Shown in pieces: positions 11,850 to 59,398 of a stretch of DNA of 64,000 bases. Where the stretch lies: NCBI GenBank assembly GCA_043733905.1, contig JAYTGA010000299.1:85-64084 (forward strand). The letters run 5' to 3'. Source of the stretch: Segetibacter sp. (GTDB lineage Bacteria; Bacteroidota; Bacteroidia; Chitinophagales; Chitinophagaceae). Numbering within the stretch: position 1 is the first letter of the stretch; each line of letters opens with the position of its first letter. The notes beneath the pieces are model-generated. The model saw only the letters and a program-made list of their open reading frames with translations, was not told the origin of the DNA and searched no databases. The position numbers and the translations under genes were made by a program.

Positions 11850-11959
11850 GTAGAAATGGCAAAATACTTCTCCGGAGTGGTTTCTAACTTGTAGAAATGG
11901 CAAAATACTTTTCCGGAGTGGTTTCTAACTTGTAGAAATGACAAAATACTTTTCCGAAG
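11850..11959. repeat. 41-bp tandem repeat, ~2.7 copies
   Basis: GTAGAAATGGCAAAATACTTYTCCGGAGTGGTTTCTAACTT starts at 11850, 11891 and 11932 (the last is partial). Confidence 0.9.
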
Positions 11960-54294: not shown

Positions 54295-56988
54295 TTATTC
54301 CAACACAGGCCGTAGCCATTTTTCTGCTTTTTCCAGGCTCATTCCTTTTCTTTCTGCATAATCGGCCAACTGGTCTTTGTTTATTTTCCCCAAGCCAAAG
54401 TAATGGCTTTTTGGATGTGCAAAATACCAGCCACAAACAGATGCCGGAGGGTTCATGGCCAGGCTTTCTGTCATTTCTATTCCAATGTTTTCCGTCACGT
54501 TCATCAGGTCAAACAGTTTTATTTTCTCCGTGTGGTCGGGACAGGCGGGATAGCCCGGTGCGGGGCGGATGCCTTTGTAGCCTTCTCTTATCAACTCTTC
54601 GTTGGTGAGGGTTTCATTTTTTTCGTAGCCCCAATATTCCTTCCTCACCTGTTGGTGGAGGCACTCGGCAAAGGCTTCTACAAATCGGTCGGCGAGTATC
54701 TGCACCAATATTTTGTTGTACTCATCGTGGTCGGCGGCAAAGCGGTCTATGTGTTCCCTTGCACCGCTAACGGTCACGGCAAAGGCTCCCATGTAATCGG
54801 TTTCGGCACCTTCTGCTTCTTCTGGTTTCACAAAGTCGGCGAGTGAATAACTTGGCTGACCCATTGCCTTTTTCAATTGCTGCCGAAGGCTTTCCAGTTT
54901 CACCGGGCCTTTGTCGGTTTGAATAGTAACGGTATCTCTATTGTTGCTGAGTGCTGGCCAAAATCCAATCACGCCATTGGCACTGTACCATTTTTCAGCA
55001 ATGATTTTTTCGACCATTTTCTGTGCATCGTTGTACAGCCTTGTTGCTTCTTCCCCAAATATTTTATCGGTCAGCACCGCCGGAAAATGACCGGGCATTT
55101 CCCAACCGATGAAGAATGGACCCCAGTCTATGTACTTAGCAATCGTTCCCAAATCAAAATCTTTAAAAACCTTGACACTGTCTATGGCCGGTTTGGTTGG
55201 CTGATAGCCTTTCCAGTCAAAATATTCTTTGGTAATAACAGCCTCTTCGTAAGCAATCAGGTTTTTGTTTCGTTGCTTGTTGGCAAATTGTGTTTGCAGG
55301 TCTGCGTATTCTTTGGTGATTTGTTGCAGAAATGCCGGCTTGGTTTCTTTGTTCAAAAGATTGGTAACCACTGTTACACTTCGGCTTGCATCAAGCACAT
55401 GTACCACGCCGTTGTCATATTGCGGAGCAATTTTTACAGCGGTGTGCATACGGCTTGTGGTGGCTCCGCCAATGAGCAGCGGTTGCTTCATATTCCGGCG
55501 TTTCATTTCGTGGGCTATGTGTACCATTTCATCCAGCGAAGGGGTGATGAGGCCGCTTAGGCCAATCACATCTGCACCTACCTTTTCAGCTTCATCCAGT
55601 ATTTTATCGGCAGGCACCATGACACCCATGTCTATGATGTCGTAGCCATTGCAGCCGAGTACAACACCCACAATATTTTTACCGATGTCGTGAACATCGC
55701 CTTTAACAGTCGCCATCAGTACTTTGGCAGCACCGCCTTGTTTGGCCAATGGGTTATTCTTTTTTTCTTCTTCAATAAAAGGAAAAAGATAGGCAACACT
55801 TTTCTTCATCACCCTTGCACTTTTGACCACCTGCGGCAGAAACATTTTGCCGCTGCCAAACAAGTCGCCAACAATGTTCATGCCGTCCATCAGCGGGCCT
55901 TCTATTACGTCCAATGGTTTGGGATATTTTACCCTTGCCTCTTCGGTATCGGCATCAATGTAATCAGTGATGCCGTTGACCAGTGAATGAGCCAGTCTTT
56001 TTTCAACCGGTTCTTTTCTCCATTCTTCATTTTTGATGTTTTCTTTGCCTTTGGCTTTCACAGTTTCAGCAAAGTTGATGAGTGCTTCGGTGGCTTCGTT
56101 GTTGTCGTTGTTGCGGTTAAGCAAAACATCTTCGCACAGCCGTTTCAGTTCGGGTTCTATTTCATCATAAACAACCAGTTGCCCAGCGTTCACAATGCCC
56201 ATATCCATACCAGCTTTAATAGTATAGTAGAGAAATACGGAGTGCATTGCTTCTCTCACATGGTCATTTCCACGGAAGGAAAAAGAAATATTGCTCACTC
56301 CCCCGCTTATTTTAGTCAGGGGCATCAGCCGCTTGATTTCCCTTGTGGCTTCTATGAAGTCAACTGCATAGTTATTGTGTTCTTCAATGCCTGTTGCGAC
56401 CGCAAAAATGTTTGGGTCGAAAATGATTTCCTGCGGGTCGTAGCCTACTTGTTCGGTCAGGATTTTATAAGCCCTGTGGCAAATTTCTACTTTTCTTTCT
56501 TTGGTGTCAGCTTGTCCTTTTTCGTCAAAAGCCATGACAATAACCGAAGCGCCATAGCTTCTGCAAATGAAGGCCTGCTCTATAAACTTCGCTTCGCCTT
56601 CCTTCATACTGATGGAGTTGACAATGCACTTGCCCTGCACACATTTTAGACCAGCTTCAATGATTTCAAACTTTGAGCTGTCTATCATGACAGGTATCTT
56701 GGCAATGTCCGGCTCGGCCTGCAACAAGTTGAGGAAAGTGGTCATGGCATGAACACCCTCAAGCAGGGCATCGTCCATGTTCACATCCAGTATTTGTGCA
56801 CCGTTTTCTACCTGCTGTCGTGCTACCGACAATGCCTCCTCGTACTGGTTTTCACGAATTAGGCGGGCAAATTTTTTGGAACCGGTTACATTGGTTCTTT
56901 CGCCTACGTTTACAAAATTGGTTTCTGGTCTAATGACCAGTGGTTCGAGACCTGCGAGGCGGAGGTAAGGTTTGATAGTTGAACTCAT
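54295..56988 (-). CDS. metH: B12-dependent methionine synthase, pterin-, cobalamin-binding and activation domains (split metH, part 2)
   Basis: [29 protein letters not shown] and [10 protein letters not shown] motifs; start refined to ATG 56988. Confidence 0.96.
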
Positions 56989-56997
56989 TTCTTTTTG

Positions 56998-57083
56998 TTT
57001 GAACCACGAAGGCACAAAGTGGCACTAAGATTTATTTATTTGTTTGAACCACTAAGGCACGTAGGCGCAAAGAGGCACTAAGA
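56998..57083 (+). repeat. AACCAC-(CACNAAGR)n repeat, two units, left of GxxExxY
   Basis: TTTGAACCACGAAGGCACAAAGTGGCACTAAGA and TTTGAACCACTAAGGCACGTAGGCGCAAAGAGGCACTAAGA. Confidence 0.85.
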
Positions 57084-57084
57084 C

Positions 57085-57480
57085 TTACATGATTATTCGT
57101 TTGATTCCATCTTTCATTAAAGGAACATGGAAGTTTAATAAATAGCCTAAGCGAATTTTAGTGAGTTTTAAATAACTCATTATTTGCGCTTCCCATACAG
57201 CATGATAGTTTTCCTGTGCTTTGAATTCTACAATTACCAACCCATCAACAAAGCAGTCTAATCTAAGACCATCATCAATTTTTAAATCGTTGTAGATTAT
57301 CGGAACACATTTTTCCCTGTCAAAGTTTATTTTTCTTAAAGACAATTCATAATAAAAGCACTTGGCATATACACTTTCTAATAAACCCGGGCCTAACTGT
57401 TTGTGAATTTTAACAGCAATGTCCACTATTTCTTTTCCAATTAATTCTTCCCTATCTGATAATTTTGTGTACATACTCAT
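57085..57480 (-). CDS. GxxExxY protein (PD-(D/E)XK-like)
   Basis: IHKQLGPGLLESVY, RLDCFVDGLVIVEFKA and GYLLNF motifs. Confidence 0.93.
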   Translation of the reverse strand: MSMYTKLSDREELIGKEIVDIAVKIHKQLGPGLLESVYAKCFYYELSLRKINFDREKCVPIIYNDLKIDDGLRLDCFVDGLVIVEFKAQENYHAVWEAQIMSYLKLTKIRLGYLLNFHVPLMKDGIKRIIM

Positions 57481-57493
57481 CTTCTTCTTTCAC

Positions 57494-58069
57494 TTAAACC
57501 TTCGTTTTCCTCCGTGTCTTAGTGTCTTTGTGGTTCTCTCTTCCGGCAAGAAAACCTATTTCAGTACGGGGTTTTTCTTCCTGGGTAATTAATTTTTTTA
57601 AAACTTTAAATATGTGCTGCACTTCATCATCTTTTTGAAGCAATGCCTGTTCTATTTTTTCCAGCTTCATCCATAGGTCTTTGTTGTCCACCAACAACTG
57701 TTTCATTTTAGTGTAAACCCTGATTATCTGGATATTTACCTGGATTGCTCTTTCTGAACGTAAAATAGATGAAAGCATAGCAACACCTTGCTCGGTGAAT
57801 GCATTTGGTAATTTACGAACACCTCCATAACTTGAAGTCACAATTTGTGACTTCAAGTTTCCCCATTCTGCTTCTGATAATTGAAACATAAAATCTTCGG
57901 GGAACCTGTTAATATTTCTTTTTACTGCTTGATTAAGTGCAGCAGTTTCTACATCATACATTTCCGCCAAATCCTTATCCAGCATAACTTTCTGGCCTCT
58001 GACAATATGAATTTTATTGACAATGATTTCATCGTCTATTTTGACGATTTCCAGATTTGCTTTCGCCAT
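57494..58069 (-). CDS. ORF6N domain DNA-binding protein
   Basis: RGQKVMLDKDLAEMY.VET..LNQAVKRN..RFPEDFMFQL...LKSQIVTS...PNAFTEQGVAMLS. Confidence 0.93.
   Translation of the reverse strand: MAKANLEIVKIDDEIIVNKIHIVRGQKVMLDKDLAEMYDVETAALNQAVKRNINRFPEDFMFQLSEAEWGNLKSQIVTSSYGGVRKLPNAFTEQGVAMLSSILRSERAIQVNIQIIRVYTKMKQLLVDNKDLWMKLEKIEQALLQKDDEVQHIFKVLKKLITQEEKPRTEIGFLAGRENHKDTKTRRKTKV
57511..57537 (-). repeat. AACCAC-(CACNAAGR)n repeat, right of GxxExxY, inverted relative to the left copies
   Basis: Minus strand AGAACCACAAAGACACTAAGACACGGA; it forms the last codons of ORF6N. Confidence 0.8.
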
Positions 58070-58098
58070 CCGATTATTTTTACAGTTAGAAAATGTTG

Positions 58099-58376
58099 TT
58101 TGAAGTCACAATTTGTGACTTCAAAATTTTTTGATGAAAAACTCAAACTTGATATCACAATCTGTGATATCAAGTTTGAGTTTTCATCAGGGTTGAAAAG
58201 TAATATTGCTGTTTATCATTTTATTAAGTATAAAAATTGAACCTATTTAATCAAATTTTTCAACTTGATATCACAATCTGTGATATCAAGTTGAAAAATC
58301 ATCTGTTTTCTTAAACTTGAAGTCACAATTTGTGACTTCAAAAGATTCTTAATATTCCATTCTGCGATATCAAGTT
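58099..58376. repeat. Cluster of four full and one half palindromes TTGA(AG/TA)TCACA-ATY-TGTGA(CT/TA)TCAA
   Basis: Copies at 58099-58125, 58132-58189, 58255-58299, 58317-58341 and a half site at 58361-58376. The same palindrome lies inside ORF6N at 57829-57859. Confidence 0.92.
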
Positions 58377-59398
58377 TACACCAATTCCGTTTCCAGAACG
58401 GGCAACCCCCGTGGTTTAAAATTCTTCACCTGTTCTGCAATGTGTTTGATGTGGTCGGGTGTGGTGCCGCAGCAGCCGCCAACTATGTTTACAAAACCTT
58501 CCTGCGCCCACTCTTCGATGATGTGCGCTGTTTCAGATGGCTCTTCGTCATATTCACCAAAGGCGTTGGGCAATCCGGCGTTGGGATAGGCAGAGGTAAA
58601 ACACTCTGCTATCTGGCTCAGTTCCTCAATGTGTGGCCGCATTTGGGTGGCACCCAAAGCACAGTTTAGCCCCACACTCAACGGGTTGGCATGACGAATG
58701 GAATTGTAAAATGCCTCCAGAGTTTGTCCGCTCAGGGTTCTGCCAGATGCATCGGTGATTGTTCCGCTTATCATGATAGGAATTTCCTGTAGTTTGTTTT
58801 CGCGGAAATATTTTTTGATGGCGTAAATGGCCGCTTTTGCATTCAGTGTATCAAAAATGGTTTCAATCAGCAAAATGTCCACACCACCATCCAGCAAGCC
58901 TTTTATTTGTTCAGTATAAGCCGTGGCGACTTCGTCGAAAGTGACGGCGCGATAGCCGGGATTGTTCACATCCGGCGACAGGCTCAGGGTTTTGTTGAGG
59001 GGGCCAATGGCACCCGCCACCCATGCAGCTTTGCGGCCTTTACCTTCTTCCGATGCAAGGAATTTTTTAATTGCATTTCTGGCACATGTTGCCGATACTA
59101 CATTCAGTTCATAAGCCAGCGATTGCATGTCATAATCAGCCTGTGCAATGCTGGTACTGCTGAATGTGTTGGTTTCAATAATATCTGCACCAGCAGATAG
59201 ATATTCGAGGTGAATGCCTTCTATGATAGATGGCTGTGTGATGCTGAGCAAATCATTGTTTCCCTGCACATCCTTATGCCAGTCTTTGAATCTTTCTCCA
59301 CGATAATCCTTTTCCTGCAACTTGTGGCGTTGTATCATTGTGCCCATAGCACCGTCAATAATCAGGATACGCTTTTTTAATTCAGTACGAATGTCCAT
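58376..59398 (-). CDS. metH: Homocysteine S-methyltransferase domain of methionine synthase (split metH, part 1)
   Basis: [37 protein letters not shown] and [12 protein letters not shown] motifs; start refined to ATG 59398. Confidence 0.95.

Follow-up and report, generated by a model that had tools for sequence, protein, structure and literature searches.

The DNA analysed here, a stretch of 64,000 nucleotides (nt) from a Segetibacter sp. contig (JAYTGA010000299.1; hereafter the window), carries a metH gene in two parts, and between these parts stand two small genes, of which one, a GxxExxY gene framed by inverted arrays of a short repeat (the arms), is the subject of this work. All of these genes are read on the minus strand. 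metH-N (59443-58376), encoding the homocysteine S-methyltransferase domain (PF02574, 2e-99; positions 6-342 of the 1234 in the metH model), is the upstream flank of both small genes, and metH-C (56988-54295), encoding the pterin-binding, B12-binding and activation domains (four Pfam domains; model positions 339-1229), is their downstream flank. The GxxExxY or PDDEXK_3 gene (57480-57085) encodes a protein of 131 amino acids (aa), which an earlier note on this DNA had assigned to the GxxExxY family; both PF13366 (1e-35; 123 bits, cut-off 22) and TIGR04256 (4e-37; 127.2 bits, cut-off 35) match it. The other small gene (58069-57494) encodes an ORF6N-domain protein (PF10543, 5e-35). The presence of both genes at one metH junction is the sole such case among the sampled loci, and no second GxxExxY or ORF6N gene was found in the window.

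Three arms of the general form AACCAC-(NAAGRCAC)n are present in the window, all of them at the GxxExxY gene. Two are read on the plus strand as TTTGAACCACGAAGGCACAAAGTGGCACTAAGA (56998-57030) and TTTGAACCACTAAGGCACGTAGGCGCAAAGAGGCACTAAGA (57043-57083) and one on the minus strand as GAACCACAAAGACACTAAGACACGGAGG (57536-57509), which in gene orientation gives a single 5' arm before the start codon and two tandem inverted 3' arms after the stop. The earlier note had described two plus-strand units and one minus-strand unit facing each other across the gene, and its coordinates are borne out by the sequence; the steps of about 8 nt that it saw after an AACCAC start recur in all three arms. Scoring with an nhmmer model made from arms of homologous loci, which replaced an earlier and too loose pattern, matched the 5' arm (57499..57536, minus strand; match 57501-57535, E 2e-4; exact pattern 57522-57535), the proximal 3' arm (57043..57083, minus strand in gene sense; match 57047-57082, E 3e-6) and the distal tandem second 3' arm, which is shorter by one unit (56998..57031, likewise minus; match 57005-57029). 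In gene orientation the 5' arm reads GAACCAC-AAAG-ACAC-TAAG-ACAC-GGAG-GAAAAC-GAAG, its fourth unit being degenerate, and the proximal 3' arm reads TCTTAGTGCC-TCTTTGCGCC-TACGTGCC-TTAGTGGTTCAAA, while both 3' arms (57083-57043 and 57031-56998) follow the form ...CTTAGTGCC-NCTTTG-GCC-...GTGGTTCAAA. Terminal inverted repeats are therewith present, as TTGAACCAC...GTGGTTCAA plus the inverted unit arrays, and a repeat search returned one direct pair spaced 45 nt and three inverted pairings of 82-88% complementarity.

The arms fill the space around the gene closely. The proximal 3' arm begins 1 nt past the TAA stop codon (57085-57087) and the distal 3' arm ends 13 nt short of the metH-C ATG (56988), which agrees with the earlier note's statement that the left array adjoins both the GxxExxY stop and the metH ribosome region. 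On the other side the last codons of the ORF6N frame are the 5' arm, giving ...ENHKDTKTRRKTKV before its stop, and the reading frame confirms what had been noted of the right array. The distance from the 5' arm to the start codon is about 20-26 nt in the window and 0-5 nt in most relatives; by homology, translation probably begins at the second ATG (57474). In the window the 3' arm is present twice, relatives usually having one, and tandem extra 3' arms also occur at four other loci (L013, L027, L031 and L054). One unit, exactly 8 nt, is missing from the proximal 3' arm near 57050 in a contig of a related population from freshwater sediment, suggesting that the number of units may vary through slippage.

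The GxxExxY protein carries the motif G32-L-L-E35-S-V-Y38 (GPGLLESVY), and in an alignment of 35 homologues G32, E35 and Y38 are invariant together with D75, E85 and K87; the D...ExK signature typical of PD-(D/E)XK catalytic sites is present. An AlphaFold2 model (predicted local distance difference test, pLDDT, 90) shows an alpha/beta nuclease-like core in which the order of elements is as expected of a minimal PD-(D/E)XK enzyme. Foldseek against PDB gave weak generic matches only (lambda exonuclease, the DrdV nuclease domain, Cas4 SSO0001 and Hjc; best E 0.03) and no significant match to a homing enzyme of solved structure, a sequence search of PDB found no relatives, and searches of PADLOC and PHROGs returned no match for the protein. 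The PF13366/TIGR04256 family comprises 13,103 clusters at 50% identity, and the only survey found that names it lists its function as 'Unknown' (PMC3424549). None of the papers found to mention GxxExxY or PDDEXK_3 describes flanking arms, and database family notes or subscription journals could still hold such a description. Some family members are about 275-295 aa long and contain two matched stretches (P0121, P0124-P0129 and others); these are either double proteins with GxxExxY in tandem or two neighbouring genes that annotation has joined.

A scan of genome collections provided 80 loci with homologues 57-81% identical to the window protein, mostly from Chitinophagaceae and Cyclobacteriaceae. 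By nhmmer, a forward arm lies upstream of the gene in 76 of these loci and an inverted arm downstream in 77, and in 49 loci these two are the only arm matches in 6.4 kilobases (kb), lying 0-5 nt before the start codon and 2-5 nt after the stop. The typical 5' arm, directly before the ATG, reads TGAACCAC-NAAG-RCAC-NAAG-GCAC-NAAG-AAACAC-AAAG and the typical 3' arm, after the stop, CTTAGTGCC-N-CTTTGTGCC-TTNGTGCC-TTNGTGGTTCAA. The flank comparison that the earlier note had proposed thus found the arms family-wide (76-77 of 80), not homologues that lack them, and the arms are a hallmark of the GxxExxY family. Inspection of DNA revealed the same frame in the cyanobacterium Baaleninema, in the gammaproteobacteria Wenzhouxiangella and Thiohalocapsa and in Bacteroides finegoldii, in the form TTCACCAC-(AGAGRCAC)n ... 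gene ... (GTGYCTCT)n-GTGGTGAA; in a metagenome-assembled genome of Terriglobales (an acidobacterium) the 3' arm is clear and the 5' arm degenerate. As arms surround relatives of the gene in at least four bacterial phyla, the architecture crosses phyla.

Both neighbours are co-directional with the GxxExxY gene in 63 of the 80 loci, and the stop codon of the upstream gene often shares bases with the 5' terminus (TAA|CCAC or TGA|ACCAC). Besides the metH junction, conserved positions were found between rhaM and rhaI and at a LigT-like gene followed by a radical-SAM gene; in Wenzhouxiangella the gene lies between two nuo-type antiporter-subunit genes and in Bacteroides finegoldii between radA and a gene for an FAD protein. 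The 5' arm has also left its mark in databases. Homologues annotated with longer N-termini begin with MNHEGTKKHKA, MNHQDTKAQRNTKV and similar stretches, which are the translated 5' arm, and distant representatives (40-50% identity) carry the N-terminal extensions NHEDTK, HHKDTK, PRHQDTK, NHRGTE and TEGTEDTE. Many database GxxExxY proteins therefore start too early, their first 10-20 residues being 5' arm, a systematic annotation artefact; such starts were seen in P0012, P0022, P0028-P0030, P0041, P0064, P0152, P0157, P0170, P0177, P0194 and others.

Translation of the 5' arm gives NHKDTK..., and some annotated proteins include it, which would suit the view that the arms have no function and are either low-complexity sequence that arose by chance or left over from coding sequence. 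The exact pattern AACCACNAAGRCAC occurs three times in the 64 kb, each time at the GxxExxY gene, where about 0.004 occurrences are expected from pattern length; if up to two mismatches are allowed, the count is 13 where 3.0 would be expected, and 0 of 100 shuffles gave as many. Moreover, many loci have arms that are out of frame, the arms lie on both sides of the gene in inverted orientation, and they are kept across phyla although synonymous sites have reached saturation. We consider an origin by chance or from coding remnants ruled out and give it practically no credence.

Whether the arms are maintained as an RNA helix or as a sequence motif was addressed at the 25 loci with canonical spacing, where AACCAC and the triplets CAC and AAG hardly vary, whereas the N and R positions are free and the N positions come near to random. 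In an RNA reading the arms would pair in the polycistronic mRNA to form a stem enclosing the open reading frame (ORF), serving RNase III processing, or insulation of the ORF and joining of the flanking cistrons. The arms can indeed pair, with a mean cofold energy of -35 kcal/mol against -17 for shuffled partners (-29.6 and -23.6 for the window arms), and an operon that is probably needed is not abolished by the insertion. Transcription of the arms with the operon is also in keeping with such a stem: low-depth contigs of an estuary metatranscriptome span both junctions of the relative L005, which, as weak evidence, fits co-transcription of the cassette with metH; the window itself stems from a sediment metagenome that has no RNA runs. 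However, compensatory change at the variable positions is missing, as the two arms of one locus share 47 identities there against 47.3 expected (p=0.56), and an arm pairs with its own partner barely better than with a foreign one (-35.3 vs -33.4). Among 116 arm-to-arm differences, counted in the sense RNA, only 18 give G-U pairs, the rest being A-C mismatches (34) or transversions (64). Pairing would also leave the repeated units within each arm and their conservation across phyla unexplained, and an Rfam scan of 56500-58500 (E up to 10) matched no family on the arms, with only spurious microRNA- and small-RNA-like matches on palindromes of the ORF6N region. The missing compensation, the own versus foreign energies and the G-U asymmetry all speak against a selected RNA helix, and among the functional readings the RNA stem ranks lowest, being quite improbable.

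The units themselves vary with the protein. Where the protein is at least 67% identical to the query, AAG stands in essentially all six scored units; at 63-66% identity the unit types overlap, with L050 and L079 of GAG/ATG type and L044, L041 and L048 of AAG type; and in a more distant protein clade GAG, ATG, GTG or GCG is found in both arms, L061 having ACG in both. Subfamilies at 38-46% identity have further arm variants of their own. GC (guanine plus cytosine) content was rejected as the cause of the AAG and GAG types, since their means (0.416 and 0.437) are close and the ranges overlap. The units of both arms thus evolve in concert with the protein clade, which fits recognition by the encoded protein. 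A repeated motif, its inverted copy, conservation across phyla and clade-linked change together point to a factor that reads sequence and binds repeatedly, and the equivalence of the arms in inverted orientation points to double-stranded DNA. This factor would be the GxxExxY protein itself, the sole conserved candidate; that the protein binds the arms, cleaves them and mobilises the cassette is what we infer from these patterns.

Arms are not confined to gene-carrying copies. Extra arms or hairpin doublets stand beside the gene in about 20 of the 80 loci, and in six of them, termed type B, complete hairpins lie on both sides of the gene (L037, L038, L042, L063, L064 and L077). L031 has seven inverted arms downstream with a period of about 45 nt, L029 five forward arms with a period of 48 nt, and L042 six hairpins upstream of the gene, as if arms and hairpins can amplify to tandem arrays beside the gene. 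An arm-first pattern scan of viral contigs yielded a further 36 arm loci (GC 0.46-0.72), most of which are hairpins with loops of 6-130 nt. Other cargo was found between arms in L176 (3031-3477, with an ORF of 130 aa lacking any Pfam match) and in L195 (396-571 and 1291-1464, with a GC-rich segment of 120 nt), and a Pfam search with two non-GxxExxY ORFs lying between arms found no family. In L195 the two copies lie 900 nt from each other and share 85% identity (mean column identity over the aligned stretch); they are clearly more alike between the arms, cargo included, the similarity being bounded exactly by AACCAC and GTGGTTC. In addition, several contigs share a family of hairpins whose loop is conserved. 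Units bounded by arms therefore act as separate repeats that have multiplied, and the arms would be the part needed in cis.

The gene-less hairpins bear on an alternative route by which the gene may have come to lie between arms. As a homing-type nuclease, a GxxExxY dimer would cut the centre of an intact palindrome, and repair from a gene-carrying copy would place the ORF between the half-sites, thereby splitting and protecting the target. In the gene-less hairpins of L063, L077, L038 and L040 the arms abut within 1-7 nt precisely where the ORF sits in filled copies, the start and stop of the ORF adjoin the arms, a symmetric site suits a homodimeric PD-(D/E)XK enzyme, and target-site duplication was not seen; the coexistence of empty, intact, decayed and lost states and of different lineages at the same metH junction, described below, likewise resembles a homing cycle. 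On the other hand, the type-B genes lie between complete hairpins and not inside one, arms of about 35 bp with free positions offer poor homology for recombinational copying, and truly empty metH junctions have no hairpin as a target. We regard the homing variant as unlikely; it is nevertheless a serious alternative, sharing most predictions with the reading of a cassette that is bounded by its arms.

That reading was examined further at the metH junction, where the earlier note had suggested a comparison of filled and empty sites. The same metH-N/metH-C junction is occupied by the GxxExxY gene in 38 of the 80 genome loci, with an ORF6N gene in none of the 38, and a metagenome scan with metH-N gave 63 readable junctions: 36 with a spacer below 170 nt (the shortest 4 nt), 13 with GxxExxY, nine with ORF6N alone and five with something else. 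The 13 GxxExxY genes belong to three subfamilies, five being of the window type with the same arms and eight of other types with arms of their own. Four are pseudogenes (L089, L131, L140 and L156), and L121, in a locus cut by a contig end, is truncated as well. Arm-only remnants were found in four of the 36 short spacers: L092 and L108 retain both arms around about 90 nt, in L092 resembling the last codons of the gene, L128 is a hairpin of 59 nt, and L083 keeps a 3' remnant. Removal of AACCAC...GTGGTT from L084 leaves an A-rich spacer of 14 nt, as in short-spacer relatives. The comparison accordingly found empty, filled, decayed and arm-only states; a clean empty allele was not found in contigs of the source metagenomes.

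Exchange at this site is indicated by the genes themselves. GxxExxY identity correlates only weakly with metH-N identity (pairwise Spearman 0.26), and L009 and L073, with metH-N 87% identical, have GxxExxY proteins of only 57% identity and differ in unit type; lineages were therefore exchanged or replaced at one site. With three GxxExxY subfamilies, ORF6N genes and other inserts, the metH spacer has been colonised repeatedly. The other inserts number at least five and measure 210-440 nt (L112, L115, L117, L119 and L129). In every sampled relative (L081-L160) metH is in two genes, cut where the homocysteine domain meets the pterin domain, and a role of the cassette in causing this split is not supported, as relatives without any element, with spacers as short as 4-17 nt, are split too. 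A solitary 3'-type arm was also observed directly before the metH-N start in several genera (L050 1891-1926, L073 1887-1920, L079 1891-1925) and upstream of metH-N in L081 and L082, no partner arm or gene being nearby; either an older cassette left it behind, or it has been kept for an effect of its own on the downstream gene.

The GxxExxY gene at the metH junction is under strong purifying selection, with a median pN of 0.16 against a pS of 0.82 and a ratio of non-synonymous to synonymous divergence (dN/dS) of about 0.07 where dS is finite, synonymous sites being saturated. Such a ratio, held over saturated synonymous divergence at one locus, is what a domesticated and immobile operon resident would show, in which the arms would act as operators or as translation or RNA-stability elements for regulation of the gene itself, perhaps also of its flanks, and the nuclease would serve in repair or RNA processing. 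The positions in the metH, rhamnose and LigT/radical-SAM operons are kept across genera, the orientation is strictly sense, the family is nearly absent from plasmids and phages, a solo 3'-type arm stands right before the metH-N start in three genera, and the 5' arm forms a CA-rich leader of the ORF, all of which would suit a resident. Yet 36 of the 63 junctions have a short spacer and no gene, so the cassette is dispensable for metH; pseudogenes and arm-only remnants are frequent, unrelated subfamilies and ORF6N genes occupy the same spot, and arm-bounded units multiply with other cargo. A domesticated resident is, in our estimate, distinctly unlikely.

Combined with the evidence from the window, the gene family and the metH junction, the best-supported reading is that of a selfish or formerly selfish cassette, the ends of which would be the arms and the only gene of which would encode a nuclease predicted to read them. 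We put at about 50% the probability that the copy in the window is a resident member of a class of very small and widespread chromosomal cassettes, REPIN/RAYT- or MITE-like (MITE, miniature inverted-repeat transposable element), in which the arms are the predicted binding sites of the cassette's own nuclease. Such a cassette consists of a promoter-less gene for a putative minimal PD-(D/E)XK nuclease between two inverted arms; in each arm, three or four 8-nt units of CAC-N-AAG-R come after a CCAC/GTGG terminus. The arms would act in cis as ends, offering iterated double-stranded DNA sites to oligomers of the encoded nuclease, which may pair the arm ends, cut them, or both. Gene-carrying copies would be those framed by arms, and gene-less hairpins and units with other cargo would be their non-autonomous derivatives. 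The cassette would sit inside operons in sense orientation and be transcribed with the host genes, and the copy at the metH junction would be old and mostly vertical in descent, with slow gain, replacement, decay and loss; spread may proceed by excision and reinsertion or by break-induced copying. A bolder proposal, that GxxExxY and its arms form an unrecognised cross-phylum class of replicators in which a minimal PD-(D/E)XK nuclease alone reads an iterated 8-nt code at either end of its own cassette, as a REPIN/RAYT-like partnership of different chemistry, and operon spacers are preferred, is put forward tentatively, and we hold it to be rather doubtful.

A number of results weigh against the cassette reading. 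The metH copy is old and strongly constrained, and a role useful to the host would also agree with its having been kept vertically for so long under purifying selection. Inspection of the flanks by eye showed no target-site duplication at the boundaries, the nearest filled and empty pair shares only 84.5% flank identity, and no population-level polymorphism was seen at the metH junction, where presence and absence differ between genera only. The nhmmer arm model found no arm copies in the 64 kb beyond 57005-57029 (+), 57047-57082 (+) and 57501-57535 (-). Pfam found PDDEXK_3 as the sole domain of the protein and no HUH/Y1 (IS200/IS605 TnpA-like), DDE, serine or tyrosine transposase; to our knowledge PD-(D/E)XK hydrolases lack strand-transfer chemistry, so a full transposition pathway is lacking. 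GxxExxY occurs in only 6-8 of 72,556 plasmid records, all of them large non-mobilizable replicons, and in 0 of 50,697 phage records, in collections that under-represent the taxa carrying the family; RAYTs are likewise rare on plasmids. Lastly, no GxxExxY gene lies near the 36 arm loci of viral contigs, within up to 14 kb; the arms therefore need no gene in cis, and another partner factor could exist. The earlier note's proposal of a minimal selfish element inserting between operon genes thus stands in part: the discrete unit, the operon spacers and the empty, filled and decayed states agree with it, and recent movement was not seen.

The ORF6N gene is a second, independent small insertion at the metH junction, placed between metH-N and the 5' arm, its frame running into the arm. 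It is alone in nine of the readable relatives, and in four truncated loci ORF6N similarity follows metH-N. The ORF6N product matches PDC-S05, a defence candidate in PADLOC (2e-60), and PHROG anti-repressors. Between metH-N and the ORF6N gene lies a palindrome-rich leader of 306 nt (minus strand), in which two palindromes of 25-27 nt each occur twice (58100..58341): TTGAAGTCACAAATTGTGACTTCAA at 58341-58317 and 58124-58100, and CTTGATATCACAGATTGTGATATCAAG at 58290-58264 and within 58184-58136. TTGAAGTCACAAATTGTGACTTCAA is also found inside the ORF6N gene (57857-57831), where it codes for LKSQIVTS, and the same palindromes follow the metH-N stop in the ORF6N-filled relatives L095, L100, L122 and L123. 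Contigs of the source metagenomes break at these palindromes (57858-57873, 58147-58175 and 58263-58291), which suggests that they are repeated elsewhere in the community or genome. A tandem repeat at 11850-11956 (41 nt, 2.6 copies, 96% matches), observed in a tandem-repeat scan of the whole window, is unrelated to the GxxExxY cassette.

For the very large PF13366/TIGR04256 family, a conserved partner in cis provides a testable system with a candidate substrate, and the natural AAG, GAG and ACG variants allow specificity to be swapped. If the arms are the sites of the protein, a PD-(D/E)XK hydrolase would drive a class of elements, mobile now or in the past, that parallels REPIN/RAYT; if the replicator reading is true, more than 13,000 clusters would gain a function and the gene-less hairpins in bacterial and virus-labelled contigs an explanation. 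Operon junctions such as metH-N/metH-C would, in addition, be repeated landing sites for small selfish genes.

Among known systems, REP/REPIN-RAYT comes closest, with autonomous transposons and their MITE derivatives also close; it is alike in that a small gene lies between inverted short repeats that also form gene-less inverted doublets, and the type-B loci, with their order of hairpin, gene and hairpin, resemble a RAYT flanked by REPINs. RAYT genes are reported to be chromosomal, vertically inherited and under purifying selection, as the GxxExxY gene is. Unlike RAYT, a HUH/Y1 transposase, the enzyme here is a predicted PD-(D/E)XK nuclease, and the arm is built of 8-nt units and not of a single short palindrome with a GTAG head; GxxExxY is found at many sites and in many lineages, whereas RAYT is one gene with hundreds of REPINs, and gene-less copies are absent from the 64-kb window. 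Transposons with terminal inverted repeats (TIRs) and their MITEs, including elements whose ends hold several subterminal transposase sites (Tn7, Mu, plant hAT/CACTA), share TIRs of iterated short motifs, gene-less derivatives that keep the ends (compare L092, L108 and L128) and multi-copy units with sharp boundaries (compare L195 and the hairpin family), the window holding a single copy. In contrast to them, the cassette shows no target-site duplication and encodes no DDE or other strand-transfer enzyme, measures only about 0.5 kb and is nearly absent from plasmids and phages.

Free-standing homing genes such as seg and mob of phage T4 are similar in placing a small nuclease ORF in a spacer between conserved co-transcribed genes and in their patchy presence, with intact, decayed and absent states side by side, and I-Ssp6803I is a homing enzyme of PD-(D/E)XK type; these genes, however, are not framed by conserved inverted arrays, whereas the partner of GxxExxY is the arrays and not the host flank. 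ORF-bearing intervening sequences of 23S rRNA likewise have a small and highly paralogous ORF inside inverted repeats within a transcribed essential unit, but the host here is an mRNA operon and the arms lack helix covariation. In type III toxin-antitoxin systems (ToxIN) a short-repeat array also directly precedes a nuclease gene; ToxI, however, consists of direct repeats of about 36 nt which work as RNA and are separated from the toxin gene by a terminator, whereas here inverted 8-nt units stand on both sides. By its enzyme class, its repeat structure and its lack of target duplications and of a strand-transfer enzyme, the cassette belongs to neither the RAYT nor the TIR family, and it apparently represents a widespread and undescribed kind of selfish gene cassette.

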